From positions 1-44,453 of the forward strand of contig CBDDUX010000022.1 of assembly GCA_965234725.1 (NCBI GenBank): DNA of 44,453 nucleotides, given 5' to 3'. The stretch's first letter is position 1. Each line of letters opens with the position of its first letter. Position numbers and translations under genes: made by a program. Source of the stretch: Thermoplasmatota archaeon. Its GTDB lineage: Archaea; Thermoplasmatota; Penumbrarchaeia; Penumbrarchaeales; Penumbrarchaeaceae. The notes beneath the pieces were generated by a model, which did no database searches, was not told where the DNA came from, and saw only the letters and a program-made list of their open reading frames with translations. This document shows positions 38 through 31,049 of this stretch, piece by piece.

Positions 38-1222
38 TCATGAGTGCTTCTTTTGTTTATAAGCACTCCTGTCAGCATATAATTCTTTCCAGTAATCATA
101 TTCATTCATGGCGAATCTTGTTATGATCACAGTTTTCCCTTTAGGAGCCATTGTAGGATCGGTAGCGTAATTTCTGAACCGGATATGGTCAAATTTCGTA
201 TCTCCCACGATCAATGTCTCGGATGTTGGGATCATGTTCATCAAACAATCCGTCTCATTAGTCATGTCCATTTCAACACCAAGCGAGACCTGAACACAGG
301 AAGGTGAAAGCGTCTCTTCTTTGAACAATTTCACATGATCGGGATCTAAAAATTTTCCCTCAAGCATGGAATACAGGGTTGCATGCATATCTGCCGCGCT
401 GATAACATAATCGGATCTATGTTCGGTCCCATCTTCCAATTTTATTCCTGCAGCTTTATTGTTTTTTACAAGTATCTTCTCAACCTTGCTGTTATAATGG
501 ATCTCTCCTCCAAGATCAGTAAACCTTTTTTCGATCCTTCTCACCAATTCACCAGAGCCACCTATCGTGTATCCTCCGGATTTCGCACATAAAAAACCCA
601 ATGGAAAAATAAAAGCAAATAATGAATAATCCCCCGATGCAAACATAATTTTGAGTGATTCTCTTATAAGAGGATCCCTAAATGAATCAGCAAATTCCTT
701 GGTAGTGATTTTATTAAGTTTTTTCAGATCTTTCATTACAGGAATCATTTTGAATATAAATTTTGTGTAATCAACGAAATTGTATAGTTCAACTGCCTTC
801 TCCATCTGAGGAGAGAATTTGGAAACATTTCTGATCCATTTACACAATTGCTTGATCTGTTTCTCATCGTCAGGTGAAGTCTCCAGCATGTGTTTCTCCA
901 GACGATCCGCATCTGTAAAGAGTGAAAATTGACGGCCATCTTTTCCTTCGAATCGGGTGAACACTTCGTGATTAATAATCTGACTATCATTAAAAGCGTT
1001 TACCTCCTTCCAGAATTGATACAGATCACTTCCGGGGCCCGATCCCATGAGCCAGTCAAAACATCCATCAAAAGTATAGTCCCCTCTTTTCCATGATGTG
1101 CATAATCCGCCTGATCTTGAGTGTGACTCAAAAATATCAGCCTCGAAACCATTCATCCTTGCATAACAACCGGCTGTCAATCCTGCAATTCCTGCTCCGA
1201 TTACTGCTATTTTCTTGCTAAT
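38..1222 (-). pseudogene. Phytoene desaturase (CrtI)-family NAD(P)/FAD-dependent oxidoreductase, 3'-truncated, with apparent ATT start
   Basis: The frame extends 42 nt upstream of the called TTG to ATT at 1222, giving ISKKIAVIGAGIAGLTAG (Rossmann GxGxxG), with SD GGGGTGA 6 nt upstream. Family motifs GGLCTSWKRGDYTFDGC and DPTMAPKGKT are present. It stops at YKQKKHS, about 100 aa short of typical ~490-aa members. Confidence 0.7.
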
Positions 1223-1262
1223 GGCTGCTCACCCCTTGGTCCCCTCGAGGATGCGGATATAT

Positions 1263-4200
1263 TCAATACTCTTCCCCTGATGGATCTATCCCACCAGACA
1301 AAGATGGAGGGCCAGAATCATATTGATATCCTTCACCCTCTGGTACCAATCCCAAATCGAATTGATCCTGATCCGAAATATCATTCTGTTCAAGATCGGT
1401 AGAAGATGGTCCCTTCTTTGCAAAAAGGAACAGCAACCATACTAGTACTATGATTAAAACTACAAATCCAGCAGATAATGCAAACAGCATGCCATAATTC
1501 ACGGAAATCTCATGATTGTCCTCACCAATATCAAATAATATTGGTTTTACATAGAAAGTTATGGTTTCAAATTCCGTTTCGATACCGGAGGAGGTCATTT
1601 CTTTAGCTACTATCTTCACTTGATAGTATCCTTCAACCAATTGACTGATATTCCAGGTGAAATTGGTTTCAGTCAATTGAGAAGCTCCCGGAATAATCTC
1701 CCATTCATTATCTCCTTTCATTCGATAATAGAGAGAGTAGGAAACTGGGTCACCATCTGGATCAGATGAAGTCCACCTGAAGGTTATCTCATTGGAATAT
1801 GTCAAATCGGCTGAGAGATTACTGTCGAGTTCTATCGTAGGTGGATCATTGATGTTGTTGACGATAATCTGTTGGGGAAAAAGTGCTTCGTTTGTCATAT
1901 TGTCATCACCCGGCTGACAGTCTGAAACAAGGATCTTCACATAATAGGACAAATCCTCCAGGCCGGTTACATTCATTTTGTATTCATTTTCATTTGGAAT
2001 TCCGGATTCAATCTCTACCCATGTTAAATTATCATGTGAAATAAAAATCCAAATCTTGAGGTTTTCACTCTCCCCAGGATCAGGATCACTTACCCTCCAC
2101 TCGAAATATGCTTTACCATTCCTGATAGGTTCATGAGGCCCTATCATATAGGGTAGCTTTATGACCGGAGCATCTGGATTATAAACATAGAAGTTGATAA
2201 AATCCGAATTTGAAATCCCATCATGAGGATCCCTTAAGATCATCTGTAATTCATACTTACCATCCCCCTCAATGAGTGAAAGAGTATTAAGGGAGTATGA
2301 ACCTAAATTTAGTCCTTCCCTAACGAGTTCCTTCCAGATAGAGGATTCTTCAAACCGATAATATAGTGTAAAGGTCATTTCTTCTGATTCATTTTCTTGG
2401 TCCTCTGATATCCAGGTCACCTCATAAATACCTCTTAAGGTTTGATTCTCTACGGGAGTGAGGAATTTAACCGAGGGATTATCATTATTGAAGATGGAGA
2501 AATTACCTGATAAAATTGAGGTCGTGACTCCATCAGTATCTGTGACATTGATCATCAATCGATATCCATCTGCATCTGGATATTTGGTTGTATTGAATTG
2601 AAAGTATCCTGTACTATTAACGTCATCTACCAATAGAATGTAGGATTTTTCTCCATTAGTTAGCCAAATATCAGTTTCTAGGCCATTTTTCAAATCTTGA
2701 GGATCATTTGAATCCCAAACGATTGCATACAGACCGGAAATAATTTCGTTTTCAATAGGTTTGAATATTTCAACACTTGGTTGATTTTGGATTTGAAATC
2801 TATCAGATATCGAATAATTCATCATTCCATCTGTGTACTTGACAATTAGCTTGACCCTGTATCTCTCACCATCTGGATAGTTGATTGAATTAAAGAGGTA
2901 GGTCCCAGTATTCTCGGTATTTTCGATCAGGATCGAATAATTCTCTCCGTCATCATCTGATATCCAGATATTAACAGATAGATCTTCGGTTTTATCTTCT
3001 CCATCTTGAGTTTCCCATTCAATATTATAAGATCTGCTGACAATCTGGTACTGTAAGGGGTTCAATATTGAAATTAAGGGAGGATCTGGATTATTGATCT
3101 CAAACCTGAAGAAGGTCCTGATTATTCTTGATTTATTATTGGAATCTTTTGCCTTGATCAGGATTGAATATCCATTTCCATCCGGAACCCTAGGAGAGGT
3201 AGTATTCCAGATATAGGTCCCGCTATTAGTGGTATATTCGATAATCGGTTCTTTCGGTTCCGATCCTCTTTGATAATAAATGCTCACTTCAAGATTCGAA
3301 ACATCCTCGAAAAAGTTGGTTTCCCACCTGATCTCAAGGTCACCTTTTAAGGTAAGATTGGTCATCTGGCTAAGGATGAAATCATTTTCAAAAGCCAAAT
3401 GGGGACCCCTACCACCACCAAAGATGAGATATGTCTGTCCTGATCCATTTCCACTCTCATCGTTCCCATTTGCTCCAATAAGAATGTCATAGAACCCATC
3501 TCCATTCAGGTCACCGGCACTTGATACTGAAGACCCGGAATGATCCTGAGAATATTCACCTATGAAGGATGCGTCGGCCGATGAAAGGTTCATATCCATC
3601 GACCATTCAGAGGCCTTCCCCAAGATCAAATATATCTGGCCCATCCCTTCACTACTCTCATCATTCTCATCTACCCCAATGAGTATGTCGTCGAAGCCAT
3701 CACCGTTCACATCACCGGCACTTGAAACGGAAGACCCGGAATAATCCAAGGAAGCTTCGCCGATGAACGACGCGTCAGCTGATGATAAGCTTGTATCCAT
3801 TGACCATCCTGAGGACTTTCCAAAGATGAGATATGTTTGCCCTGCCCTGTCACCGCCTTCATTATTCTCATTTGCTCCAATTAGTATGTCATGGACCCCA
3901 TCTCCATTTATGTCGCCGGCACCTGAGACTGAGGACCCGGAATGATCCTGAGAGTTTTCGCCGATGAACGACGCGTCAGCTGATGATAAGCTTGTATCCA
4001 TTGACCATCCTGAGGACTTTCCAAAGATGAGATATGTCTGTCCTGACCTGTCACCGCCTTCATCATTCTCATCTGCTCCAATGAGTATATCGTGGAACCC
4101 ATCTCCATTCAGGTCACCGGCAATTGATACTGAAGACCCGGAATAATCCAAAGGATTTTCGCCAATGAAGGATGCGTCAGCTGATGATAAGCTTGTATCC

Positions 4201-6341
4201 ATTGACCATCCTGAGGACTTTCCGAAGATGAGATATGTCTGTCCTGATCTGTCACCCCCCTCATCATTCTCATTAGCTCCAATGAGGAAGTCCTCGAATC
4301 CATCACCGTTTACATCACCGGCACCAGATATTGAAGATCCGGAAAAATCCAAAGAATTTTCACCAATGAAGGATGCGTCAACGGATGATAAGCTTGTATC
4401 CATTGACCATCCTGACGACTTCCCGAAGATGAGATATGTTTGCCCTGCCCTGTCACCACCCTCATCGTTATCATTAGCTCCTATGAGTATGTCATCGAAT
4501 CCATCTCCATTGACATCTCCTCCACCGGATATGCAATACCCAGAATGATCAGCAATTTCCTCACCGATGAATGACGCATCCGCTGAGGAAAGGCTAATAT
4601 CCATTGACCATCCTGAGGACTTTCCGAAGATGAGATATGTTTGCCCTGCCAAATTATTGCCCTCAGAGTTTCCATATGCCCCTATGAGGATGTCGTCGAA
4701 ACCGTCTCCGTTCACGTCACCGACACCTGTTACCGAAAACCCTGATTCATCACCTGCAGTCTCGCCAATAAAGGATGAGTCGGATTCAGAAAGATCGGTA
4801 TCCATTATCCAAAAAGTAGACCATCCGAATATCAGGTATGTTTGCCCTGCTCCATTTCCTCCCTCATCGTTCTGATAAGCACCAATGAGTAAGTCATCGA
4901 ATCCGTCGCCGTTAACATCAGCTCCGCTGGATATTGAATACCCAGACACATCAGAGGCAACCTCGCCGATGAATGATCCGTCGGCCGAAGATAGGCTGGT
5001 ATCCATAGCCCATCCTGAGGACTTTCCGAAGATGAGATATGTCTGACCCGCGGAATCCCCACCTTCATCGTTCTGATGGACCCCTATGATGATATCGTTG
5101 AAACCGTCAAAATTGATATCGCCGGTACCGCTTACGGAATTTCCGGATTGATCCAAAGTTGCCTCTCCGATGAAGGACCCATCCGCATTAGACAGGTCAA
5201 TATCCATTGACCATCCTGAGGACTTCCCCAAGATCAGATATGTCTGCCCCGCTCTATCACCTCCCTCATCATTCCCATATGCTCCTATGAGGAAGTCATC
5301 GAAACCATCTCCATTTACATCACCCGCACCGGATAAGGAGTATCCTGAATAATCTGCAATATTCTCACCGATGAAAGATGCGTCAGCATTAGACAGCTTG
5401 ATATCCATCGACCATCCGGAAGGCTTCCCAAAGATCAGATATGTCTGCCCCGCTCTATCACCTCCCTCATCATTCCCATATGCTCCTATGAGGAAGTCAT
5501 CGAAACCATCTCCGTTCACGTCACCCGTACCGGACACTGAGAAACCAGACATATCGGAGACATCCTCGCCAAGGAATGACGCATCAGCTGAAGAGAGGCT
5601 TATGTCCATTGACCATCCCGAGGATTTTCCGAAGATGAGATATGTTTGCCCTGTCGTACCACCTCCCTCATCGTTCTCATTCGCTCCTATAAGGAAGTCG
5701 TCGAAACCATCTCCATTTACATCACCAGCACCGGATATAGTTATAGCAGATTGATCTCCGGCAACCTCTCCGATGAAAGATGCATCAGCTGAAGAGAGGC
5801 TTGTGTCCATTGACCATCCCGAGGATTTTCCGAAGATGAGATATGTTTGCCCTGCATCTATCCCTCCCTCACTATTCCTATTCGATCCTATTAAAATATC
5901 ATCAAAACCGTCTCCGTTCACATCACCCGCACCGGTTATGGAACTTCCAGCCCAATCGAAAGCAGACTCACCGATGAAGGAAGCGTCTGCAGAAGAGAGA
6001 CTGGTATCCATCGACCATCCGGAAGATTTCCCCAAGAACAGAAAAGTCTGGCCTGCCTTATCGCCAGCTTCATCGTTATAAATCGCTCCTATTAGGACAT
6101 CGTCGAAGCCATCACCATTCACATCACCAGGATAGGTTACGGAATACCCCGATGCATCACCAACACCCTCTCCGATAAATGAAGCAGATGACACATTAGA
6201 AATATTCATGCCCATGGTACTTTCGCCAACTCCCCGAGTTGGACCTCCAATTGCTTCAAATGATGGAATTTCTTCAGGAAACAAAGAAAAACCTGTCGTT
6301 AGCAGGGCAAATACAATTATGGTTGAGTAACTCTTTTTCAT
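1263..6341 (-). CDS. Membrane-anchored surface protein: signal peptide, 14 FG-GAP (integrin-alpha-type) repeats, about 6 Ig/Fn3-like domains, TM helix, acidic tail
   Basis: 14 copies of (G/A)D(V/I/L)NxDG..D.(L/I)IG...GQ.YL..G. Beta-sandwich repeats (W..D...Y...W....L..G.Y). TM segment YGMLFALSAGFVVLIIVLVWLLFLFAKK. Confidence 0.92.
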   Translation of the reverse strand: MKKSYSTIIVFALLTTGFSLFPEEIPSFEAIGGPTRGVGESTMGMNISNVSSASFIGEGVGDASGYSVTYPGDVNGDGFDDVLIGAIYNDEAGDKAGQTFLFLGKSSGWSMDTSLSSADASFIGESAFDWAGSSITGAGDVNGDGFDDILIGSNRNSEGGIDAGQTYLIFGKSSGWSMDTSLSSADASFIGEVAGDQSAITISGAGDVNGDGFDDFLIGANENDEGGGTTGQTYLIFGKSSGWSMDISLSSADASFLGEDVSDMSGFSVSGTGDVNGDGFDDFLIGAYGNDEGGDRAGQTYLIFGKPSGWSMDIKLSNADASFIGENIADYSGYSLSGAGDVNGDGFDDFLIGAYGNDEGGDRAGQTYLILGKSSGWSMDIDLSNADGSFIGEATLDQSGNSVSGTGDINFDGFNDIIIGVHQNDEGGDSAGQTYLIFGKSSGWAMDTSLSSADGSFIGEVASDVSGYSISSGADVNGDGFDDLLIGAYQNDEGGNGAGQTYLIFGWSTFWIMDTDLSESDSSFIGETAGDESGFSVTGVGDVNGDGFDDILIGAYGNSEGNNLAGQTYLIFGKSSGWSMDISLSSADASFIGEEIADHSGYCISGGGDVNGDGFDDILIGANDNDEGGDRAGQTYLIFGKSSGWSMDTSLSSVDASFIGENSLDFSGSSISGAGDVNGDGFEDFLIGANENDEGGDRSGQTYLIFGKSSGWSMDTSLSSADASFIGENPLDYSGSSVSIAGDLNGDGFHDILIGADENDEGGDRSGQTYLIFGKSSGWSMDTSLSSADASFIGENSQDHSGSSVSGAGDINGDGVHDILIGANENNEGGDRAGQTYLIFGKSSGWSMDTSLSSADASFIGEASLDYSGSSVSSAGDVNGDGFDDILIGVDENDESSEGMGQIYLILGKASEWSMDMNLSSADASFIGEYSQDHSGSSVSSAGDLNGDGFYDILIGANGNDESGNGSGQTYLIFGGGRGPHLAFENDFILSQMTNLTLKGDLEIRWETNFFEDVSNLEVSIYYQRGSEPKEPIIEYTTNSGTYIWNTTSPRVPDGNGYSILIKAKDSNNKSRIIRTFFRFEINNPDPPLISILNPLQYQIVSRSYNIEWETQDGEDKTEDLSVNIWISDDDGENYSILIENTENTGTYLFNSINYPDGERYRVKLIVKYTDGMMNYSISDRFQIQNQPSVEIFKPIENEIISGLYAIVWDSNDPQDLKNGLETDIWLTNGEKSYILLVDDVNSTGYFQFNTTKYPDADGYRLMINVTDTDGVTTSILSGNFSIFNNDNPSVKFLTPVENQTLRGIYEVTWISEDQENESEEMTFTLYYRFEESSIWKELVREGLNLGSYSLNTLSLIEGDGKYELQMILRDPHDGISNSDFINFYVYNPDAPVIKLPYMIGPHEPIRNGKAYFEWRVSDPDPGESENLKIWIFISHDNLTWVEIESGIPNENEYKMNVTGLEDLSYYVKILVSDCQPGDDNMTNEALFPQQIIVNNINDPPTIELDSNLSADLTYSNEITFRWTSSDPDGDPVSYSLYYRMKGDNEWEIIPGASQLTETNFTWNISQLVEGYYQVKIVAKEMTSSGIETEFETITFYVKPILFDIGEDNHEISVNYGMLFALSAGFVVLIIVLVWLLFLFAKKGPSSTDLEQNDISDQDQFDLGLVPEGEGYQYDSGPPSLSGGIDPSGEEY
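3415..6190 (-). repeat. Intragenic tandem repeat, 14 x 201 bp (67 aa), encoding FG-GAP blades
   Basis: The period is 201 nt. For example, 5231-5312 is identical to 5432-5513, and shadow ORFs on the + strand recur at 3562, 3763, 3964 and 4165. Confidence 0.95.
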
Positions 6342-6730
6342 TTATTTGTCCCCATTATCAATTTGATTGAGTTTCTCCAAGACCAGATCTTCCAGAATTT
6401 GGTGCCTGTTAGTCCCATTATTATCCGATCCTATCACTCATGAAATAAGGTTTCATTTATAAGAGGGTGTGGATTTCAATTCTAAACCTTTCATTGATAA
6501 TTACATCCATCGTGTGGTTCCCACAGATTCCGGAAACCAGTAGGTTATTTTCCTTAACTCCAAAGCATCTCTCTTGAAGGCATCCAAAATAGATTCTTTC
6601 ATTTTGGGTATCGTTTTTGACAGTTTTCAGGATCTTTCAAACCCCGTCCTCGACACTTCATTCAGTTTTGTTTTAAATAATTCATTTTTTATATGCTTTT
6701 GTTAATGTTCTTGTAAAAAGAGGTGTTGAA

Positions 6731-7285
6731 GTGAACGAAGTCTTGAAAGTGATCAAAAGAAGAAGGAGCATTAGAGATTTTAAGACAGAGCAGATCAAAC
6801 CAGAAGAACTGGATATGATCCTTGGAGCAGGTACTTTTGCTCCATCTGGTCATAATACACAACCCTGGTATTTCACTATTATTCAGGACCAAGATCTTAT
6901 CGATCGTATTAATGAGATATCAAGAGAGAATATGGCAAGGTCCGAGGTGGAATGGATCAAAAAACTCGGATCAAGATCAGATTATCGCGTCACATATAAT
7001 GCACCTACGGTTGTAATTGTATCAGGGAATATATCCGCAATAAGTTGGAAAGCGGATTGTTCTGCAGCTATTCAGAATATGCTGCTTGCCGCAGAAAGCT
7101 TGAACATAGGTTCTGTCTGGCTTGGATTGATAAGGTTCTGGTTTCAGGAACCTGAAGAAGTTGAAAGACTTGGTCTTCCTGAGGATTATGAAGCTTACTA
7201 TGGAGTATCTTTTGGATACAAGAAGCAGCAAGGAACTGTTGTGGGACCTGAAAGAAGAAAAGGTGTGATCCATTTCCTGAAATAG
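6731..7285 (+). CDS. Nitroreductase family protein (FMN-dependent)
   Basis: Motifs IKRRRSIRDF, APSGHNTQPW and AIQNMLLAAESLNIGSVW. SD GAGGTG precedes the GTG start. Confidence 0.93.
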   Translation: MNEVLKVIKRRRSIRDFKTEQIKPEELDMILGAGTFAPSGHNTQPWYFTIIQDQDLIDRINEISRENMARSEVEWIKKLGSRSDYRVTYNAPTVVIVSGNISAISWKADCSAAIQNMLLAAESLNIGSVWLGLIRFWFQEPEEVERLGLPEDYEAYYGVSFGYKKQQGTVVGPERRKGVIHFLK

Positions 7286-7552
7286 GAAAATGATATTGAT
7301 ATCATTAGAATCAATAGAAAATAGAAGATTCCATGTTCAAATAGAAGACATCCCATTACTATCTACTATGCTATATAAGAAGCCCTTTTCCAATAAACCC
7401 AATAATCTCTCCTGAAGACATGTAAATGAAATACTATCATCGTTGAAGTTATCCTCGGAGATATTACACTGCTTTATTATATTTCAAATGGCTACCCCCT
7501 TTTACAATTCATACATTTACTACCATGGGTAATTCTGGAAGTGTGATATTTC

Positions 7553-10500
7553 ATGGAATCTACAGAACCTAAAGATCCCAATACATGTGAACTCGAACCG
7601 ATTGAGTCGGAGACATTTCGAGATCTGAATGATACACTCCTATCCGAAGAAATGTACAACAAGAATTTGGCTGCAGTTTCAGCATGGATCGAGCAAGCAG
7701 GTGGGGATCCTCAAAAGGCCTTTGCCCGTGTTCTGATAGTTAATAATGGCCTTTCAGCATTGCGGATCATTCAGGGAATCTCATCTCTATCCAATCTGAT
7801 CTCCCAGGGTAAAGATCCTACTCTAATTCAGGCCGTGGCCATCGCCTCTGACGCAGATTGGGTTGGCGATTGCCTAGAAGAGGCACAGCAGCGCCCCAAC
7901 TATCTTAAAGAACCCGATATTATCATTGCCCGCATTGCAGGATTACGGCCAAAAGACACCTATCAAAACCAGGATGAGGTCATTGCAATCGCCCGGAAAT
8001 ACAAGTGTGACGCAATTGCCGTAGGATGGGGACATCTAGCTGAGAATATAACCTTTGCATCCCGCGTAGAGAAGGAGGGGTTCGTCTTCATTGGACCACA
8101 TGCAGAGGCAATGAGCCTGATGGGCGACAAGATCATGTCAAAACTGATCATGGAAGAAGCGGAGGTTCCCATGCTTCCTTGGAACGGTTCTGACATATCC
8201 CTATCTGATATCCGAGCGGATGCAAAGGATCTGGTCTCAGCTCGTGAAAAAAAGGAAGGTCCTCTTTCCGAAACAGATCGGTATCGTATGTTATTTGATC
8301 TTGCTTATGAACGGGTTGGGATCAATTCTATCGAAGAGGCCCGGTCGGTTGTTGACAACATTAACATTCCTGTGGTCATCAAAGCTACCGCTGGTGGCGG
8401 TGGTCGTGGTATTCGCTTCGTCACCGATGAAAAGGATCTTGGGTCCGGCCTGCAGGCTGCCATTTCAGAGGCATCGGCAGCGTTCGGAAACGGTACGGTA
8501 TTCATTGAAAAGGCCGCCGATCCCGGCTCTCGGCATGTCGAGGTCCAGATCCTGGCAGATACTGCAGGGACTGTAATAGCTCTTGGCGAGCGTGAATGCT
8601 CTATCCAGCGTCATAATCAGAAACTGATAGAGGAAAGCGGTGATGACATCCCCATAAGCAATGCAACCCGGCAGATCCTTAGAAAGGCTGCGGTAGCTGC
8701 GGCAAAAGCTGCGAAATATGTGAATGCCGGTACCGTAGAATTTCTTGTGGATAAAGATGGCAATCCATATTTCATGGAGATGAACACAAGGTTGCAGGTA
8801 GAACACATAGCTACAGAGGCAGTGTGTCCCGGACTCGACCTTGTGGTAGAGCAGCTGAAAATTGCCATGGGCATTCCCCTCGATCAAGAATTGATATCAT
8901 TAAGCGGGTCACTCACTACGGGTAAGCACAGCATTTCCGTTAGAATAACGGCTGAGAATCCCAATGCTGGTTTCAGTTCTCAAACCGGCACTATCGAATC
9001 GCTCGATATTCCTAATCTTGGTCCCAACACCCCTCGCGCATATTTCAGCTTCGGAGAGGGAGGAACCGTTCATTCCTTTGCGGACAGTCAGATAGGTCAT
9101 GTGGTTGTAAGTGCACCTACTCGTGAGGTAGCACGACAGTATATGGTGGCCTTTCTGAATAAATTACGTATCAAAGGCATCCTGACAACCCTCCAGTTTT
9201 CATCCACAATAATGCAAGATGCAGAATATATTGACGGAGGGGACATCCACGTTAATTGGCTCAAGCAGCGACTCGATCACGCACGATCGAAAGAGGGTGC
9301 GTCCCTTGGCAGTTCCAAGGTGCAACCCGAGCTAGGACTGGCAGCGGTGGCAATACTCGACTATCTTTTCCAGAAGGCAGAATCACAGAACAAATTCCAT
9401 GCGAACCTCATTTCATCGCGGTCTATCTCTCCCAAACTCCTGGCGAATACCGGCCTTACCCGTGTGAAATTCGGGAACCATCATTATACTGTTATTGTTC
9501 GTGAGATCGCAGATGAGCTTTATGAATTGATACTGGACAATGACTCGATGCTTGTACGGTTCTGGGAACGGTTGGGCCCATCTCGTTTCATGATGGAATA
9601 TAACGGGATCGTCTACCAGGTTCACCGGACAAATGAGACTTCCATAACCCATATAGAATTGGGCGGGCATACCATCACCTTCGAACGAGACCTTGACCCG
9701 GATGTTTTTCGTGCCCCTCTCGCTGGTATTATTTCATCTGTCGATGTCCAGCCTGGTCAAATAGTTGGGTTGGATGATACATTATTTACCATGGAAGCCA
9801 TGAAAATGATCTCATCACTCGATTCTCCACGAGCTGCAGCCATTGCAAATGTGTATGTTGATGCAGGTTCTATTGTTGAAGCGGGAACACCGTTACTGAA
9901 ATTCTCTGAAGCAAAAACTTCAGAGGTGGAAGAGGGACCGGTCCCATCCGGAGATGAAATAGAGGTAAAGGAATCCCGTTTACAATTCAAGCATGATGAA
10001 ACACACCTGGATTCCAAGCTCTATCGAAAGTGGTGCGAGAATGGTAGATTAAAGAGTCACTCGGCCGGTAGATCCGGCCCTGGCTGGAAGAAAGATTTGG
10101 AAAGTAGTCCTCACTCCCGTAGAAGGGAAACGCAGGACCAGACCCTTGAACAAAAGGAACAGGTTGCCATAAATGATAACGATATCAAGACCGTGATCGC
10201 CAATATCATGCGTGGATATCAGTTTTCAAACTACTTTTTAGACCTTCTGACAGAAGAGTTCACCGATATGAAAAAGCGACTCAGTGAAGAACAGTGGATC
10301 GCTCTCGTCAGCGAAACCATAGAAGCGTTCCACAAGGATGAGCGATTCTTCAAAGGGTCCATATCTCTAGTAGAGGGACTCGCCATTGCAGAAGAAGAGA
10401 CTGGAATAACTGATGCCGAAAAATATGATCTTGCCCGTTCTCACGCGAATTTGCACTCTAAGAAGACAGTGCTGTTAGCGCTACTTGAGCCCATTTCTTC

Positions 10501-13500
10501 AATGGATTTCAAATCTATAGTGTCCGACCTGGAAAAGCTAACAGACCTGGGATACTCTGATGAATACCGTGACCTATCCGCTCGAGCGGAAGAGCTCATA
10601 CATCTAATTCACCCTCTCCATGAGCGACCGATCGATCTTCAACAAGTTATGGAAGATATCGTTTCAGCACACGAATCGGGAGAACTCTCCGTTCAGGATG
10701 AATTAATGAAGAATGTAATGGCCACCACGGAATCCATGCTCTCTCAACTGATCGATTATCTTGTGACCGGATCGGGTTTTGCCCGAAAGATAGCAGGAAA
10801 GCTAATTGTCATGCGCGCCTACCGACGCCACAAGGGACTGACATGCGATTATGAACATATCGAGGGTGGGAAACGGCTCTACATATGGCGTTTAGTTGAT
10901 GCTGATACTGATATGGATCGTATGGGTCTTGTTAGCTTGGTAGAGCCCGGCGAGAATATCATGCAAAGCCTGACCCTTATGTATGAGCGTCTTCAGCGGC
11001 TCTGGGAGGAATATCCCGAAAGAACGGATCATACGGGAGATACCCTTGAACTGCTCATCCAATGGCCCCCTGATATCAAGAGCAGCGATGAGCTGTCACA
11101 GCACTTGAGTGTTATTGTAAATAAGGTTCTTGCAAATGAATGTCTGAAGCGTGTCACATTCGTTGTTCAAACCCTTCATGACCACATTCCCGGATTCTTT
11201 ACATTCCGGCCTGAGGAGGAGGGGAGCAGCTCGTATTGTGAGGATACCCTATGCAGGAACCTTCATCCTTCCTTGGCATACATGCTTGACCTGAAACAGC
11301 TTGAATACCTCAAAACAAACATTATCAAACTACCATCTGCAGATCCGTTGGTACATATTTTTCATCATCGTATACCGAATCCTCGCGGGTCGGAGCTACC
11401 GGATATTGAGAACCGTATCTTTGTAAGGACCATAATTAGAAACTCCGAGATAATCATGGGTCCTGAGGGCCCCTCCTTCCCGGCAGCGGAAGAGGCGTTT
11501 GCCAACTCCCTGCGACATCTGCGGGTCTCATATACTGCAACCGGAGCTCGGTCCCATAATAATCAGATTTATCTGGCATTTGCAAAACCTATAGAACTAT
11601 CTCTAGTGGAGTTCCAGAAGATCGTCAATGGAATGACCCGGAACATGAGTGAATATGCCGATGTTGACCTGACAAGAATGGAAATACGAGGCCGTGTCGA
11701 TTCCTGGCAGGCAACCGGTAGGAGGATCGATATGCTCCTCGTGGTTGACAATCCAACAGGATTGCTAACGGAGATGAAAGAATTTGTTATTGACACCTCT
11801 GGTTCCAAAGGTGCCAAGAAGACACGTATGCTCCTTCCCTACAGTGAGTTTATCAAGCAGCATCACAAGGGAGAACCCACAACTTCCGAAAATTCATGGA
11901 TACCTTTAAGCGACCTGATCAAACCAATGACAGCAGTGGACAAGAAACGAGTTATCTGTCGTCAAAAAGGGAAAGCTTACGTTTATGACAGGCTCTCACT
12001 TTTAAGAAATAAATTGGAAAACATCTGGTCCTCCTCTGGAAAAGCTATGCCCGATGAGATACTGACAGCTCAGGAGCTGATTACCGACCCCCAAGGGGCG
12101 ATTGTTCCGATCGACCGGCCAGCTGGTGAGAATGATCTGTCAATTGTGGCATGGCGTGTACGTATCAAGTCACCTGAGGCTGATTCTGGCCGGGAATTGA
12201 TTGTGGTTTCCGGAGATATGACACACCAAGGCGGTTCGGTTTCCATGGAGGAAGATATTCTCTTCTGGGAAGCAGCACGGATGGCCCGTGATGATGGTAT
12301 TCCATTCGTGTATTTCGCGGAAGGGAGCGGAGCTCGGATAGGCCTTGCGACGATCGTAACCCAGCGGTTGTCATATGATGACAAGAAAGATGTGTTCTTC
12401 GTAAACAAAAAAACGTACTCCCTTCTGAAACCAATAGTTATTGGCCACCGGGATCCAGCCAGGAGATCGCGTTTCATCATCACCTCCATTCTCGGCGGTC
12501 TACCCGGTATCAATGTGGCAGAAGAGGATGAATATCTCTATGTTTCTGAGGCCACCTATAACCGGTTCAAAGACAGAATGACCGCGCATCCAACTACTGT
12601 CAATACCGGCTCGAAAGATAAGGTCCGCTGGGTGATCGATTCAATTGAAAAACAGTATCCCCTGATCAATTTCGAGAACCTGTCCGGTTCGGCACTGATG
12701 GCACGGGCATGTTCATTGACCTATCACAGTGTTCCCACAATGGCCGTTGTAACCGATACATGTACCGGGATCATTGCATACAATGTTCGTCTGTTAAAAC
12801 GTATCATTCAAACCAAGAACTCGGAGATCATATTGACCGGCTACAGGGCCTTGAACTCTCTCTATGGCGGCGATGACGTATATTCCAGCAATCGTGAGCT
12901 TGGAGGGCCACAGATCATGGGTCCCAACGGGGTGTCTCACCATATAGTGGATGATGAAAGCCATGCCTGCAAAACCGTTCTATCATGGCTTGCGGGCGTT
13001 CCGATCAAGCGGGGATATCCATCTCCCGAAATGGAAACGGCAGACCCGATAGAGCGGGACATTTCAGGCGCCCTCCTTGGGCCGCATGGTCTGATCGAAC
13101 CACCCGGACCCGAAGCCGAACGTCCTGTCCCCTATGATTCGATGAAGCTTGTTCGTGCTATTTTTGATGAGGATTCTACTGAGGAGGCCATGGAAGAGTG
13201 GGGTGGCACAGTTCATGTAGGCCGAGCAACCATTGGTGGTTATCCCGTAGGTTTCATCACAGTCGAGACCAGAAAGGTGGAAAAGGAGGTGCCTGCCGAT
13301 CCTTCAATTGAGGGGTCAGCACCGGTTGAGATCAACCAGTTCGGACAGGTCTGGTATCCTGATTCTGCGTTTAAGACCTCCCAGTGGATACAGTTCATGA
13401 AATATGAGCAACGACCGGTAATTATCCTGCCCAACTGGCGTGGTTTTGCTGGTGGAAAGATCGACTTGTATAATGAGGTTGTTAAATTTGGTGCCATGAT

Positions 13501-13990
13501 CGTGGACGAACTGGTCCACTTTGACCTACCTGTTATCCTCTATATTCCTCCATATGCTGAGCTGCGGGGAGGGGCCTGGGTGGTTGTCGATCCACAGATC
13601 AATCCTGACCGTATCGTTCTCATTGCCGATGAGCATGCCACCGGATCGATCCTGGAACCCTCCGGAATGGAGTCTGTCCCCCTTATCCAGAGGCAGATCA
13701 AACGTGACATGATACAGCAGGACCCCATACTATCAAAATTGTACAGGAACCGGACAAAGTATGCAACACAGATGGAACGTATCAAACATATTGACCAGCA
13801 GATCGAGGAACGCGAGACAGAGATCTGGCCGGAATATCTTAAAAAATGGACCAAGATCTTTCGGCTGCACAATACTGCAGAGCGCATGGGCGCTCTTGGA
13901 ATTGCGAGTGAGGTAGTTCCAACGTCAAAAGCCCGTGAGGCCATCTTCAGGAATCTCAAGAATGGTCTGGAAAGGATAGTTAAAGAGTAA
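7553..13990 (+). CDS. Single-chain eukaryote-type acetyl-CoA carboxylase (ACC1/ACACA-like): BC ~7720-9280, BT, BCCP ~9700-9905, ACC central ~10190-11800, CT ~11950-13960
   Basis: BC motifs VLIVNNG, GWGHLAEN, GGGGRGIR, EMNTRLQVEH, HSFADSQIGH. Biotin site EAMKM (Lys751, within nt 9791-9808). Central motifs NIMRGY, SHANLHSK, RAYR, RVTF, RIFVRTIIR. CT motifs SGARIGLA, ENLSGS, LGGPQIMGPNGVSH, GQVWYPDSAFKT, NWRGF, ELRGGAWVVVDP. Confidence 0.95.
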   Translation: MESTEPKDPNTCELEPIESETFRDLNDTLLSEEMYNKNLAAVSAWIEQAGGDPQKAFARVLIVNNGLSALRIIQGISSLSNLISQGKDPTLIQAVAIASDADWVGDCLEEAQQRPNYLKEPDIIIARIAGLRPKDTYQNQDEVIAIARKYKCDAIAVGWGHLAENITFASRVEKEGFVFIGPHAEAMSLMGDKIMSKLIMEEAEVPMLPWNGSDISLSDIRADAKDLVSAREKKEGPLSETDRYRMLFDLAYERVGINSIEEARSVVDNINIPVVIKATAGGGGRGIRFVTDEKDLGSGLQAAISEASAAFGNGTVFIEKAADPGSRHVEVQILADTAGTVIALGERECSIQRHNQKLIEESGDDIPISNATRQILRKAAVAAAKAAKYVNAGTVEFLVDKDGNPYFMEMNTRLQVEHIATEAVCPGLDLVVEQLKIAMGIPLDQELISLSGSLTTGKHSISVRITAENPNAGFSSQTGTIESLDIPNLGPNTPRAYFSFGEGGTVHSFADSQIGHVVVSAPTREVARQYMVAFLNKLRIKGILTTLQFSSTIMQDAEYIDGGDIHVNWLKQRLDHARSKEGASLGSSKVQPELGLAAVAILDYLFQKAESQNKFHANLISSRSISPKLLANTGLTRVKFGNHHYTVIVREIADELYELILDNDSMLVRFWERLGPSRFMMEYNGIVYQVHRTNETSITHIELGGHTITFERDLDPDVFRAPLAGIISSVDVQPGQIVGLDDTLFTMEAMKMISSLDSPRAAAIANVYVDAGSIVEAGTPLLKFSEAKTSEVEEGPVPSGDEIEVKESRLQFKHDETHLDSKLYRKWCENGRLKSHSAGRSGPGWKKDLESSPHSRRRETQDQTLEQKEQVAINDNDIKTVIANIMRGYQFSNYFLDLLTEEFTDMKKRLSEEQWIALVSETIEAFHKDERFFKGSISLVEGLAIAEEETGITDAEKYDLARSHANLHSKKTVLLALLEPISSMDFKSIVSDLEKLTDLGYSDEYRDLSARAEELIHLIHPLHERPIDLQQVMEDIVSAHESGELSVQDELMKNVMATTESMLSQLIDYLVTGSGFARKIAGKLIVMRAYRRHKGLTCDYEHIEGGKRLYIWRLVDADTDMDRMGLVSLVEPGENIMQSLTLMYERLQRLWEEYPERTDHTGDTLELLIQWPPDIKSSDELSQHLSVIVNKVLANECLKRVTFVVQTLHDHIPGFFTFRPEEEGSSSYCEDTLCRNLHPSLAYMLDLKQLEYLKTNIIKLPSADPLVHIFHHRIPNPRGSELPDIENRIFVRTIIRNSEIIMGPEGPSFPAAEEAFANSLRHLRVSYTATGARSHNNQIYLAFAKPIELSLVEFQKIVNGMTRNMSEYADVDLTRMEIRGRVDSWQATGRRIDMLLVVDNPTGLLTEMKEFVIDTSGSKGAKKTRMLLPYSEFIKQHHKGEPTTSENSWIPLSDLIKPMTAVDKKRVICRQKGKAYVYDRLSLLRNKLENIWSSSGKAMPDEILTAQELITDPQGAIVPIDRPAGENDLSIVAWRVRIKSPEADSGRELIVVSGDMTHQGGSVSMEEDILFWEAARMARDDGIPFVYFAEGSGARIGLATIVTQRLSYDDKKDVFFVNKKTYSLLKPIVIGHRDPARRSRFIITSILGGLPGINVAEEDEYLYVSEATYNRFKDRMTAHPTTVNTGSKDKVRWVIDSIEKQYPLINFENLSGSALMARACSLTYHSVPTMAVVTDTCTGIIAYNVRLLKRIIQTKNSEIILTGYRALNSLYGGDDVYSSNRELGGPQIMGPNGVSHHIVDDESHACKTVLSWLAGVPIKRGYPSPEMETADPIERDISGALLGPHGLIEPPGPEAERPVPYDSMKLVRAIFDEDSTEEAMEEWGGTVHVGRATIGGYPVGFITVETRKVEKEVPADPSIEGSAPVEINQFGQVWYPDSAFKTSQWIQFMKYEQRPVIILPNWRGFAGGKIDLYNEVVKFGAMIVDELVHFDLPVILYIPPYAELRGGAWVVVDPQINPDRIVLIADEHATGSILEPSGMESVPLIQRQIKRDMIQQDPILSKLYRNRTKYATQMERIKHIDQQIEERETEIWPEYLKKWTKIFRLHNTAERMGALGIASEVVPTSKAREAIFRNLKNGLERIVKE

Positions 13991-14032
13991 TCAAACAACT
14001 TTCGATGTAAATATTATCAGATACCAGTATGG

Positions 14033-14075
14033 GGCCTTTCTACGCTATAATGAGGACCTCAATAGAGGCCTTTTT
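14033..14075 (+). terminator. Possible hairpin plus T-tract terminator downstream of the ACC gene
   Basis: Imperfect stem GGCCT(TT)CTA...TAGAGGCC with inner TGAGG-A-CCTCA, followed by TTTTT, about 40 nt after the ACC stop. Confidence 0.35.
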
Positions 14076-14273
14076 CATCTAATCCGGATCTCTCTTAGAT
14101 CGGCATCCAGAAGAGGTCCTTTCATTTTCGGTATCGAATTTGACATCTTGGAGGTTACTACCTCCAAGGTAAGGAAGATCTTTGATTTTCTGGATGTTTT
14201 CAGGTTTTTTTCAAAAACTGTCCCAGATTCACTTGATTTGGTATCAGGCGCTTTTTGATTCTCTTTTTTCACA

Positions 14274-17200
14274 TCATTGGATCGAGGATTTATCTGCAAT
14301 ATTATCAGATCTGATCTCTCCCTCCTGGACCGCATCCGGTCCAGGTTCGGTTGTAGCAGTCTCAACCTCAGGATCAATTTCATTTTGACCATTGAGTTCA
14401 ACCTTTTCAAGGTCGTTTACTGTCTCTCTGATAGTTTCCCGGAGTTCTCTGGTAGCCTCCTCCCTGTCCACCTCTTCATTATTTTTTGGTCTCCTTCGGG
14501 TCAGTATGATTATTTGGAGAATGATAATAATAATAAAGAGTATAGCAAGTCCAACCATTCCAAAATATATGGGATTGATCCCTCCCTCCTTTTCTTCGAC
14601 TACCTCTATCTTGAAAGTGGAAGTGAATACATCCAGACCATCGCTGACGGACACAGTCACAGAATGCACACCCACCTGATCATTTTCGGGTTCCCAAAGG
14701 ATCATACCATCATTTTCGGATATCTGGATACCCTCAGGTCCATTTAATATACTGAAAAATAGGTTTCCGATATCATCTCCATCACTATCGGTTCCAGCTA
14801 CTTTAAATCTGAAACTTGAACCAGCATTCACTTTTTGTTGAGGTATGTTATTGATCGAAGGAACGTTGTTGACCGTGAATGAGCCCATATTATCATTGCA
14901 TACACCAAATGTACATTGATCGAAGGGGATAACGGTCCAATAATAGGTCTTGCCCTTTTCCAGTTCTCCAAGTTCCAGAGAATTCCCTTCATATTCTGCT
15001 ATGTAGAGTGATTCTGTCCTCAATGTCTCAACGAATTGTTTATTCTCTGATAAATATACCCAAAAGGTCAATGTTTCTCCTTCGGGGTCATTTCCCTCCC
15101 ATTCAAGGACCGTCATCTTTGAGGAGGTTTTACCTTTCTCCTCCGGACCTGAGAACCATGCACTTGGTGATTCCGTCGGTAAGACTGTGATCTTGAAGAC
15201 ATGGTTTGTGAAGGCTGCGGCATTATCGGAGACCCTTATATTGACCTCCAGTTCATTTTTATCACCGTCGAAAATCGTGTAATCGGCCGTCCATTCGACA
15301 AGACCTGTCCTTTTATTGATCTCCAGGCCGGATTCTGGTTCGGTCCAGACTGAGAATTCCAGCTCATCTCCAATGTCCGGATCAGTTGCATTGACATCGA
15401 AAATGAAGGTACTGCCGTGAAGGATCTCAAGATCATCCGGTATATCACTCCAAATCGGTTTATCATTCACGTTCTCGATCGTAAGCACAAATTCATGGCT
15501 GTTCATCAATCCCCCCGGATCCTTTACGGTCACATTCACAGACCAAGCTCCAACATCCCAAATACCGGGAGTTCCTGACAGCGTTCCTGTATTATTGTTG
15601 ATCGTAAGGAATGAAGCATCCGTGAAAAGCTCCCAGTGAAATTTTTCATCCCCGTCAGGGTCCAGAGCCACATAGTTCATTTGATATTTTTGTCCCTGCT
15701 TTCCTGTTGTAATATCTGTACTTGTGATCCTCGGTGGCTGGTTGAAATTTATCACTGTAAGCATGAAAGTTATGGATCCGGTCCCACCGTTTCCGTCATT
15801 CACCATAACAGTTATGTTCACGGTTCCTGCGTCGTCGTAAAGAGGGGTACCTGATAGGATCCCGCTGTTTTCCTCGATGGAAAACCATGAGTTGTCAGGG
15901 ATAACTGACCAAGATATCTCACCCTGTGTGTCATCAGAAGAATTGTAATCGACATAGTATTCCATTCCTTCTTTAGCAAACAGGATGTTTTCGGTTGTAA
16001 TATCTGGGGGTGTATTCACAACATTGATCCGGAACTCATGCTTATCCTTATGACCCAATTCATCACTTATCTCGATCCTAACATCACAAGGAAAGATATG
16101 ATTGTTGTTCGGAATCCCGTGGAGTATCTTGTTTTCCTCATCCCAACTGAGCCAATCAGAGGTGAAATACACATCCCAACTTTCCACCTCATAGCCGAAA
16201 TTCCAGTAATCCACCCTGTATTCCTGGTCTTCTAAAACTGTCGTGACATCAACAAAGGGTCTGAGCTGAAGAGGTGTGTGAACCATTATTTTAACTTGGA
16301 TAGAAAGTGTTTCCAGGGAGGTTATGGTAACATTCTCGAAATAATCCATATCCGCGGGTACCTCGAAATTTCCAATGTACTCACCAGAGCTCAGACCTGT
16401 CTCCATTAAAACGATCGGATTATTGAAAACCGTCTTACCATCTGAACTAAGATTGACAAATGCTTTGTCAATTGAGGATGGATTTGAGTCTGATCCCCTG
16501 GCCTTGAATATTATCTTCTGACCGAGGTCCATCTTGTCCAGGGTTGATAGGTTGAACCTATCGGTATGGACAGTTATGGAGTTTATTGAATTTGGCCTAT
16601 AGGGATAATCAACAACCATGTCTACCTTTACATATGGATCCTTCCATGAGGAAAATTCAATCATGTCGAAATATTCCATGGATAAGGGAACCCTGAAGTA
16701 TCCTCGATGAATACCGGAATCGCTTTGTGTCTCAAGCAATGTGATCTGCTGTGGAGAGAGAGACCCTCCAGGAAATACAACATCTACTTTTGCCCCGCTC
16801 CTGATACTTGTATTCGCGTCGGTTCCGGAAAGCTCGATGTAAACCCTTTGTCCAATGTCGAATTTGTAACCTTCATCGAAATAATTAATGTCATTGAAGA
16901 GTTTGATGGATTCAACCTCAAGTGGCTCCAGCCATGGAGTAATATCCAATGCCATGAGGAAAGAATCCGTCGCACCACTGTTATACATCTGGTATGGATC
17001 AAGAACGGTTAGATCGGTTGAGGAAGTATACCCGGTAAACACGGCTCTTCCATATGGATCGATAGCGATCCTCCCCATTATGGAATCGTTTTCCGACCCT
17101 CCGAAATAAGTGGAATATTCCAAACCGGACAGATCGCTTTCCAGGATGGATATGAATCCATCTCTGTTTCCTGAATTCGATGTATTTATTGCATTTGAGG

Positions 17201-25600: not shown

Positions 25601-25795
25601 TCCGGCTGCTTTTATAGCGGAATTGATGGTCTTGTAGAGTTGATCCTGACCGACATAAAGGGTGGAACTCCTGGTATCCTCTCCATTCACATTGATCTCA
25701 TTCCCGATCATATGGGTTCCAGAGAATAATACTATGATTGCCAGCAGGACGCAGAAACTTAATTCCCCAATTTTTTCCATGTTCTTCTCCTCCAT
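22688..25795 (-). CDS. Membrane-anchored surface protein: NosD/right-handed beta-helix, cadherin-like Ig and PKD-like domains, TM helix, cytoplasmic tail
   Basis: YKTINSAIKAAGNGDTIRVYSGIYYE, Asn-ladder repeats and GGNYWSD. Ig repeats with TGVLSGIP. TM segment FLFLFITGCVFTVLLVIITLSFFIYRRRK. Confidence 0.9.
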   Translation of the reverse strand: MEEKNMEKIGELSFCVLLAIIVLFSGTHMIGNEINVNGEDTRSSTLYVGQDQLYKTINSAIKAAGNGDTIRVYSGIYYESMTISKSITLEGNSSKTSVINHTATSTIIWITANDVTIKNMGFEGNSLLESIGIKANGLNTTGGNRIKVAKCEFTNTKAISIGFSNGHRIMDNIIQNGKCGSFSNTADTILKNNLGLNGGAIFIEGDNNIVENCTASNFGKQGTGIGVDILGEGNIVRECFLHDINGTGIRISGNDNRIDGNIIESNLWNGMYIYVSDRLIISNNTFKDNLLNGLRIIGSDNCSIRYNDFINSEDYGILIEHSGWNTADNEIIFNNFIGNGGDYHQAFDYYEGNIWSSPAGGNYWSDHNNIDWDKDGFADSPYTINGQGDAKDYKPFPSQLEFLNPVELVTKDVTSVNRSENYSVQYKAYDWDSTKLTWSMETNASFLSFSSSQVLYGTPQVPTSSYWVNITVRDEQSMDFSNFTLKVIDPNPPLQIITVNVPTCTEDEDYIVQYQAYNGADLTWELATDAGFLSMDPSTGVLSGIPGNDDVGSFNVLISAKNDRARDESEFTLEVINTNDRPEIMTNDILSVKEGELYSVQYLAIDIDPTMDELYWSLVSDCSFINMDGYTGILSGIPEQDDAGVYDVNVTVSDGNGGFDSHIFKLEVLRVNIPPVASKEKWNIEMMEDGTDSSLNIFEMFYDIDGDFLDHEISSHDDISSQISDSGTITFRPSPDWNGKAIFTASASDGEFTASTIIEISVLNVNDAPSKLEIMVISEEFRENNSQKVSASALDIDTGDSLTYEWIVEGIGIIGTGNSTDLDLPAGNYTLILRVIDTFGDDSETSIRIMVLPVSDVIPHDDDPSNAGSFLFLFITGCVFTVLLVIITLSFFIYRRRKSKIEERNQAFEVWNPVIFDNNGPTPLIGKVLDPLSVSDTHILHPDQDLAVNNDLVNGGKLDDNQSTDDFPGKIDLHEDRGYLFSLFNEVIEGRKNTPSNIRLLDRLENARMKREIPEKDYSEIKRKLNNMNKYDKIK

Positions 25796-30812: not shown

Positions 30813-31049
30813 TAGTTCCAACAATTGATGGTTCAATTCAATAAAACGATATTTTTCCATGATAGTTTAAAACATATGAACAATGGGATCGGATCTCTGA
30901 AATTGCTCTGAGATCTGGTCCCTGTCTTTTCTTTTAAGTATCTCCCTTGGAGATATTTTTCATTTTTTTTTCCTTTTAGTACTTTCATTACCGGAATTGA
31001 TAGCTTAATAATGATGGTCCTCATCGTTCGGTATAAGGAAGGAATCCAG

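Follow-up and report, generated by a model that had tools for sequence, protein, structure and literature searches.

A single-chain acetyl-CoA carboxylase of eukaryotic architecture in Thermoplasmatota archaea, most likely sister to the sampled eukaryotic enzymes

Contig CBDDUX010000022.1 of an uncultured Thermoplasmatota archaeon (GenBank assembly GCA_965234725.1), whose 44,453 nucleotides are referred to here as the window, carries a gene for a single-chain acetyl-CoA carboxylase (ACC) built like the enzyme of eukaryotes. The gene occupies positions 7553 to 13990 of the plus strand as a single uninterrupted frame, stop codon included in the span, for a protein of 2145 amino acids (aa). The public DNA runs that contain it are marine-sediment metagenomes, and no RNA data set with the gene was found among the public sequencing runs listed. 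Open reading frame (ORF) analysis, Pfam and matches to solved structures in the PDB define the order biotin carboxylase (BC), BT linker, biotin carboxyl carrier protein (BCCP), central domain and carboxyltransferase (CT). Six Pfam domains follow one another in the order of eukaryotic ACC, BC first and CT last on one chain: Biotin_carb_N (aa 57-187), CPSase_L_D2 (257-445), Biotin_carb_C (463-571), Biotin_lipoyl (720-783), ACC_central (1120-1408) and Carboxyl_trans (1707-2133). The best solved full-chain relatives are human ACC1 (6g2i, 735 bits) and yeast ACC (5csk, 665 bits), the match to human ACC1 extending over three stretches (40-808, 1196-1603 and 1660-2137).

The BC domain begins with an N-terminal subdomain (aa 56-210; 7718-8182, on the plus strand like all features of the gene) in which NNG (aa 64-66) replaces NRGE. 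It also contains SALRIIQG (aa 68-75), which supplies R71, Q74 and G75, then W159 and H161, and it ends with LPW (aa 208-210). Row alignment places a lineage-specific insert after this P-W pair (aa 211-256; 8183-8320), at the site of the eukaryotic insert and longer. The ATP-grasp core (aa 257-450; 8321-8902) carries the prokaryote-type motifs KATAGGGGRG (aa 277-286; 8381-8410), GERECSIQR (aa 345-353; 8585-8611), YVNAGTVEFL (aa 389-398; 8717-8746) and YFMEMNTRLQVEH (aa 406-418; 8768-8806). In the C-terminal subdomain (aa 451-580; 8903-9292) lies a eukaryote-type block, PRAYFSF...VHSFADSQIGH, composed of PRAYFSF (aa 494-500, including R495) and HSFADSQIGH (aa 507-516). The preliminary description of the locus had listed the four prokaryotic-style core motifs, NNG and HSFADSQIGH between 7720 and 9110, and all of them are located there. 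Next come the BT linker and BCCP domain (aa 581-810; 9293-9982), to which the Biotin_lipoyl match and the human ACC1 alignment up to residue 808 belong. Translation and conservation point to K751 (codon 9803-9805), in E-A-M-K-M, as the presumed biotinylated lysine. The central, non-catalytic domain (aa 830-1650; 10040-12502) was recognized by ACC_central with an E value of 1.6e-34, and the CT domain (aa 1655-2145; 12515-13987) by Carboxyl_trans with an E value of 4e-86.

The glycine-rich ATP loop, an E-x-N-x-R-L-Q-V-E-H motif and the A-M-K-M biotinyl-lysine site all appear intact. The catalytic motifs and the AMKM site, including each of E748, A749, M750, K751 and M752, do not vary among 16 archaeal sequences with identities down to 44%, arguing that the gene is under constraint. 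Judging from these conserved motifs, the BC domain would carboxylate biotin on K751 using ATP, and the CT domain would hand the carboxyl group to acetyl-CoA to yield malonyl-CoA. The individual BC catalytic residues presumably have the roles assigned to them in the BC literature.

A search of 5.8 billion proteins returned 19 close relatives at 43-89% identity (P0002-P0020), mostly full-length, with P0013 and P0014 as cut forms; those with names are "Thermoplasmatota archaeon" proteins from metagenome-assembled genomes. Next after this archaeal clade came eukaryotic ACCs (Hydra, Hondaea, Catenaria and others; about 30% identity, E about 1e-200), followed by a bacterial multidomain family of about 1850 aa found in Acidobacteriota, Acidimicrobiia and Nocardioides (E about 1e-119). 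The CT domain scored mostly 270-320 bits against eukaryote-length proteins, versus 49-97 against the bacterial multidomain family; its score with the CT of human ACC2 was 422 bits, whereas ordinary archaeal CTs matched only with E values of 1e-4 to 1e-8. For the central domain the scores were 60-184 bits with eukaryote-length and 21-84 with bacterial multidomain proteins, two of the latter giving no match, and the nearest Atlas clusters to the central and CT part are eukaryotic ACC (0.95). The BC domain scored about 250 bits against both families. When residues 1-620 were compared with 1.84 billion representatives, the BC proved nearly equidistant (245-280 bits), beyond its own clade, from PCC/MCC-alpha-like proteins, stand-alone BCs, eukaryote-length ACCs and bacterial multidomain ACCs.

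Trees were built for the separate domains from rows picked for computing time, not randomly: 8-9 of the 20 archaeal proteins (the query and its 19 relatives), 17-28 eukaryote-length proteins, 9-15 of about 90 bacterial multidomain proteins, 14 PCC-like proteins and 21 stand-alone BCs. In the BC tree (77 rows, 458 columns, insert removed), the archaea, the eukaryote-length rows and two odd metagenomic rows, P0028 and P0032, form a group with a Shimodaira-Hasegawa-like approximate likelihood ratio test (SH-aLRT) value of 100. Within it the crown eukaryotes (17 rows plus P0034, P0275 and P0339) are united at 99, to the exclusion of the archaea, P0028 and P0032. The bacterial multidomain rows make up their own clade at 100, and they do so likewise in the CT, central-domain and whole-protein trees. 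With the BC flanks alone, the same two clades were recovered at 100 and 99, and all multidomain forms were united at 97. The central-domain tree, rooted on the bacterial forms, joined the archaea to P0028 and P0032 at 97, as sister to the crown eukaryotes at 98. From 1790 columns of the whole protein, the corresponding values were 95 and, for the crown eukaryotes, 100. The CT tree, from which P0035 was excluded because its match was too short, was rooted solely on the distant bacterial multidomain forms; there 29 crown rows occupy one side of a branch.

The domains are thus congruent with each other and lie outside the eukaryotic clade; nesting inside one eukaryotic clade did not occur in any of them. 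This bears out the earlier view of the protein as a deep-branching, ancestral-like ACC, as opposed to one captured recently from a crown eukaryote. The archaeal clade together with P0028 and P0032 is most likely sister to all sampled eukaryotic ACCs, and these sequence comparisons found no prokaryotic relative closer to eukaryotic ACC.

Some further observations concern these relatives. P0028 and P0032 are metagenomic proteins that group with the archaeal clade; a search with residues 900-2053 of P0028 returned only P0028 itself. Two other metagenomic proteins, P0034 (1467 aa) and P0339 (1447 aa), have BC and CT with almost no central domain. P0034 stands at the base of the eukaryote clade and has intermediate motifs, with KAANGGGGRG and no Trp at the place of yeast W487. 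A contig search with the patterns FMEMNTRL and ..AVGWG. brought up no Thermoplasmatota eukaryote-type ACC among the best 80 of at least 600 matches, in which ordinary biotin carboxylases dominated.

The archaeal BC domain had been described as a mosaic, with a prokaryote-like core between eukaryote-like flanks. The eukaryotic counterparts cited there for the core motifs agree with the human ACC1 alignment and with 25 eukaryote-length rows. We counted diagnostic columns, defined as those where the eukaryote consensus (at least 80%) differs from that of at least 60% among 66 prokaryote-type rows. Of 44 such columns, the archaeal clade agrees with prokaryotes in 20 and with eukaryotes in 15, the remaining 9 holding other residues. 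The ratio of prokaryotic to eukaryotic states is 11:1 in the core (257-450), 3:8 in the C part (451-580) and 6:5 in the N part (40-190). The same split is seen in P0028 (core 8:2, C part 4:9) and P0032 (core 11:1, C part 5:8). PDB searches gave a similar picture: the core found Staphylococcus aureus BC first (2vpq, 183 bits) in a series of prokaryote-type BCs at 140-183 bits, the C piece found yeast ACC at 63.5 bits versus 41 and 32 for prokaryote-type chains, and the N piece matched yeast ACC (72 bits) and the N-domain of bacterial PC (69 bits) about equally. A prokaryote-like core with eukaryote-like flanks is therefore real in the archaeal BC.

The pattern is softer than the motif list implies. 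Mean identity to eukaryotes versus BC/PCC-type rows is 0.32 versus 0.36 in the N part, 0.43 versus 0.50 in the core and 0.37 versus 0.28 in the C part; the gaps in the core and C part amount to 7-9 points, and the N part is not more eukaryote-like. Most of the eukaryote-like signal of the C part comes from window 496-535 of the protein (0.50 to eukaryotes versus 0.28). A runs test for clustering over the 35 ancestral or derived columns was not significant (P=0.42), and ancestral and derived residues stand side by side, as with NNG beside ALR and R495 beside YFS.

Codon usage sets the gene apart from its surroundings. Only 25 of its 126 Arg codons are AGR and 101 are CGN, versus 329 AGR codons of 411 in the 17 other ORFs of the window, where the AGR fraction per ORF ranges from 0.50 to 0.94. 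The CGN codons prevail in each part of the gene: 7/7 in the N part, 5/5 in the insert, 7/9 in the core, 6/7 in the C part, 11/11 in BT/BCCP, 42/57 in the central domain and 22/29 in CT. This uniform CGN-rich usage in an AGR-using genome argues that the whole gene is foreign to its host. The distribution of the gene is patchy. A CT domain of this type occurs in 15 of 401 sampled genomes of the phylum, and only in two families, denoted f1 (10 of 23 genomes, the genome of the window aside) and f7 (4 of 4); full-length ACC matches came from f1 genera g1-g4, a single g6 genome and f7. Because the genomes are related, these and the following distribution counts describe a pattern and are not independent observations. 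From the patchy distribution and the foreign codon usage together, we argue that Thermoplasmatota probably received the ACC gene. The donor could have been an unsampled prokaryote or a eukaryote lineage that predates the last eukaryotic common ancestor (LECA).

Individual copies vary. The foreign Arg usage persists although the gene predates the divergence of two families whose proteins are 44-52% identical, and the ACC of genome G006 is less deviant (AGR 0.57). In genome G001 an apparent second, partial copy (C92, 5766-9986; a 1410-aa frame, 76-83% identical) exists besides the full one, and in G004 (C13, 31755-38082) the ACC matches are fragmented and contain one TAG and one TGA, which may reflect a broken gene or an assembly error.

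Taking these results jointly, we consider it likely that the protein is a single-chain ACC of eukaryotic architecture and sister to the sampled eukaryotic ACCs, that its mosaic is a pattern of characters and not a chimera, and that it had one foreign origin. Several observations weigh against this reading, and those that concern the core speak for an ancient recombination, in which the ATP-grasp core of a eukaryote-type ACC would have been swapped for a prokaryotic BC core in the ancestor of the archaeal clade plus P0028 and P0032. Prokaryotic states are in excess in the core relative to the rest of BC (11:1 versus 9:14, Fisher p=0.0039); the first eukaryotic ACC in the PDB search with the core (2yl2, 130 bits) appeared at rank 59 among the best 60; and a careful core-only tree, which is the best evidence for a chimera, placed the archaeal rows next to those of ordinary BC and PCC type, with an ultrafast bootstrap (UFBoot) of 97 and an SH-aLRT of 79. 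In addition, 7 of the 14 derived states outside the core sit in one 20-residue block and hence are not independent. The core-only data comprise 192 columns. A quick tree from them was a local optimum, the constrained tree being 32 log-likelihood (lnL) units better, so it was replaced by the careful search and the approximately unbiased (AU) test was rerun. The constrained tree that unites archaea, eukaryotes and odd rows then exceeded the careful free tree by 1.25 lnL (p-AU 0.51), showing that the core holds too little signal to choose a topology. Nor was there a donor group: the archaeal core is not nested within any sampled prokaryotic group, and its median identities of 51% to BC, 50% to PCC/MCC-like and 51% to bacterial multidomain proteins (maximum 56%) are those of prokaryotic group cores among themselves (49-53%; BC versus bacterial multidomain 51%, BC versus PCC-like 53%). 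The eukaryotic cores, in contrast, are 43-45% identical to all groups, the archaeal one included, which marks the eukaryotic core as the diverged one. A resident source does not fit either, as the genome's own BC, on contig C40, is only 38% identical to the BC of the ACC. The interleaving of ancestral and derived states in the N and C parts, the non-significant runs test, the like split in P0028 and P0032 and the equally foreign Arg codons in core and flanks also speak against a swap. We thus regard the recombinant that the preliminary description had offered as an option as unlikely. The simplest reading of the sequences is that the whole gene had one origin, with an exchange so old that the donor signal was lost being possible.

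The other adverse points concern the sampling and depth of the trees. P0028 and P0032 were moved from the "eukaryote-length" to the "odd" class after the CT tree was seen. Eukaryote names are attached to only 5 of the 17 eukaryote rows (6 of 28 in the CT tree), namely Hydra, Hondaea, Catenaria, Cyanidiococcus, one MMETSP and one EukProt transcript, the rest being metagenomic and classed by length and clustering; Discoba, Metamonada and Amoebozoa have no labelled row. Most trees are quick searches with SH-aLRT values only. The agreement of the CT tree is weak, since its crown branch reaches only 69, its backbone is a polytomy and a very long branch, of 5 changes per column, leads to its bacterial outgroup. 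The archaeal clade has a long stem of its own (0.7-1.1 changes per column, and in the CT tree another 1.58 beneath that), so that attraction to the outgroup is possible. The unresolved CT backbone, the long stem, the thin sampling of named eukaryotes and the foreign codon usage would all suit a gene that was captured from a crown eukaryote and then evolved fast, with the true nesting hidden by long-branch attraction and the prokaryote-like residues being reversions. This scenario is highly improbable, as the crown eukaryotes exclude the archaea at 99 (BC), 98 (central domain) and 100 (whole protein), about 20 exact reversions would be needed at columns with at least 80% agreement among eukaryotes, P0028 and P0032 have the same states, and the gene is older than the split of the two archaeal families. 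Conversely, the archaeal host and the position as sister to all sampled eukaryotes might indicate an enzyme native to archaea that passed to eukaryotes from their archaeal ancestor, the Thermoplasmatota copies being relics. The restriction of the CT domain to two families of the phylum, in a comparison confined to Thermoplasmatota, to the exclusion of Asgard genomes, and the contrast between the AGR fraction of ACC (0.20) and that of host genes (0.80) make this very unlikely, and to our knowledge Thermoplasmatota are not an accepted sister group of eukaryotes.

A single gene lineage, sister to that of eukaryotes, would account for the mosaic in the following way. The states shared with eukaryotes (NNG, W.H, YFS...ADSQ.GH, the central domain and the CT type) would have arisen on the common stem. 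The changes of the eukaryotic core (KASEGGGGKG, GRDCSVQR, ELNPRLQVEH and others) would have come later, on the eukaryotic stem alone, so that the archaeal core would keep the ancestral, prokaryote-like states. The architecture, central domain, CT type and surfaces of the BC N- and C-subdomains would thus have been established first, and the catalytic core would have changed later and in eukaryotes only.

We also examined the insert and the BC surfaces implicated in dimerization and inhibitor binding. Between W210 and K277 there are 66 residues, versus 45 in eukaryotes and 24 in prokaryote-type rows; the archaeal rows have 65-67 residues between these columns. Neither P0028 and P0032 nor the bacterial multidomain and ordinary BC rows have the insert, which is short in P0034; the W of P-W is also present in the bacterial multidomain family. 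Thus, of the flanking features that had been called eukaryote-like, NNG and HSFADSQIGH hold, and the insert does lie at the eukaryotic site, but it cannot safely be treated as shared, given its absence from the nearest relatives, P0028 and P0032, and we do not count it as a shared derived character. Two independent gains or a single loss could explain its distribution.

Alignment to the yeast chains 1w93 and 5csk maps K73 to R71, R76 to Q74, S77 to G75 and W487 to R495, taking the chain offset of 5csk to be 21. The alignment to 5csk_A thereby agrees with the earlier reading of the K73, R76 and W487 places as R, Q and a residue other than Trp. From these replacements it had been proposed that the archaeal enzyme may not need the BC dimer, and modelling gives this no support. 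A homodimer model of residues 58-557, made with the alignment of 16 archaeal sequences, reached an ipSAE of 0.47 versus 0.00 for the best control, which passes a mark attained by 20 of 30 proteins with one-chain pair structures and by 1 of 23 with single-chain structures. Contact agreement between runs was at least 98%, and the partner's predicted local distance difference test (pLDDT) score was at least 87. The modelled interface includes residues 71, 74-75, 77-78, 81-82, 488-493, 495, 497 and others, that is, a helix and a loop with R71, Q74, G75 and R495, although passing the mark may reflect memory of, or likeness to, solved BC dimers. The model suggests that the archaeal ACC is probably a homodimer with BC-BC contact through the usual surface, made by different residues. 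All four positions that we take to form the soraphen A site (K73, R76, S77 and W487 in yeast numbering) are changed. Soraphen A is therefore unlikely to bind, and insensitivity to it is a reasonable expectation from the alignment.

The genome of the window also encodes a potential consumer of malonyl-CoA. On its contig C54 (L091, 7326-18548), a 3740-aa ORF has the order KS-AT-(KS-like)-ACPx4-KR-DH-PPTase of a PfaA-like iterative megasynthase, and its Arg usage is host-like (AGR 0.83). The megasynthase and ACC genes are on different contigs in this genome. In G006, both lie on contig C17 (L092), the megasynthase orthologue at 819-10745 and the ACC at 10833-17261, 88 nt apart on the same strand. 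Among 40 relatives searched, the genome of the window aside, the megasynthase is present in 22 of 23 genomes of f1, 4 of 4 of f7 and the one genome of f5, and it was not found in any of the 12 genomes of the ten other families searched. Three g5 genomes, 80-97% complete, have the megasynthase and no ACC match. The co-occurrence of the two genes and their adjacency in G006 suggest that the ACC probably supplies malonyl-CoA to the megasynthase.

The neighbours of the ACC gene are prokaryotic or archaeal in style and comprise an HVO_0163-type helix-turn-helix protein, subunits of indolepyruvate:ferredoxin oxidoreductase, a PRC-barrel protein and giant surface proteins. Four giant repeat proteins, on both sides of the ACC, make up about one-third of the window: an FG-GAP protein with Kre9/KNH and NTR matches (1263-6341, minus strand), a DUF7948/He_PIG/Big_9 protein (14274-19049, minus strand), a beta-helix/He_PIG/cadherin-like protein (22688-25795, minus strand) and a DUF6259/CarboxypepD_reg protein (31011-34922, plus strand). 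Farther along, a 765-aa protein (39952-42249, plus strand) has a DnaJ domain near its C terminus (aa 675-741) as its sole Pfam match.

Single-chain ACCs are a textbook feature of eukaryotes. With the homomeric eukaryotic enzymes (yeast Acc1, 5CSK/5CSL; human ACC1, 6G2D/6G2I) the archaeal protein shares domain order, length class, a true central domain, CT type and AMKM, as well as the BC characters NNG, W159/H161 and YFS...ADSQ.GH. It differs from them by its place outside the sampled-eukaryote clade, by prokaryotic states in 20 of 44 diagnostic columns (11 of 12 in the core), where it lacks KASEGGGGKG, GRDCSVQR and ELNPRLQVEH, by R71, Q74, G75 and R495, and by its longer insert, lack of introns and archaeal genome context. 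AccC (Escherichia coli 1BNC, S. aureus 2VPQ) and the alpha subunits of PCC and MCC have the same type of ATP-grasp core motifs, 2VPQ being the best PDB match to residues 257-450. However, AccC is a stand-alone protein of about 450 aa whose N and C motifs are NRGE, GVRVDS and YDSMI.K, and the AccC and PCC/MCC alpha rows lie on the opposite side of the SH-aLRT 100 branch in the BC tree.

Single-chain ACCs have been described in bacteria since 2019, and the bacterial family of about 1850 aa is that of Livieri et al. 2019, in which the actinobacterial SACE_4237 of Saccharopolyspora erythraea is shown to be an essential homodimeric multidomain ACC (PMC6491548). Like the archaeal protein, this type is a prokaryotic single chain of the order BC-BT-BCCP-central-CT with a prokaryote-type BC core and the P-W motif. 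Unlike it, the bacterial family keeps NRGE and F/YDSM.AK, has no insert and forms a separate clade (SH-aLRT 100), and its CT (49-97 bits) and central domain are far more distant from the archaeal ones. Single-chain carboxylases of the long-chain acyl-CoA carboxylase (LCC) type, as outlined in the same source, have an N-terminal CT, a C-terminal BC-BCCP and no central domain (PMC6491548), in contrast to the archaeal ACC, where BC is first, CT is last and a central domain is present. Literature searches, whose coverage of subscription journals was small, found no publication on an archaeal eukaryote-type ACC or its megasynthase.

The origin of the one-piece eukaryotic ACC is a standing question. 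Of two earlier studies, Lombard and Moreira 2011 left eukaryotic ACC unplaced, its BC and CT being "extremely divergent" groups (PMC3199775), and Livieri et al. 2019 proposed an actinobacterial source (PMC6491548). The archaeal clade is far closer to eukaryotes than the bacterial family proposed as source, is their sister in each of three domain trees and, with its ancestral BC core, shortens the long eukaryotic branch. We put forward, tentatively and as less than an even prospect, that the archaeal clade with P0028 and P0032 may preserve the pre-LECA enzyme, and that eukaryotic ACC, the source of malonyl-CoA for fatty-acid membranes, may derive from or have been shared with such a prokaryotic lineage and not actinobacteria. 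If this is true, these proteins would represent surviving intermediates that divide the long branch leading to eukaryotes. Malonyl-CoA production for a PfaA-like megasynthase would also bear on fatty-acid-type lipid synthesis in archaea, and the archaeal clade makes the question of ACC origin testable, by sequences and by the purified enzyme.

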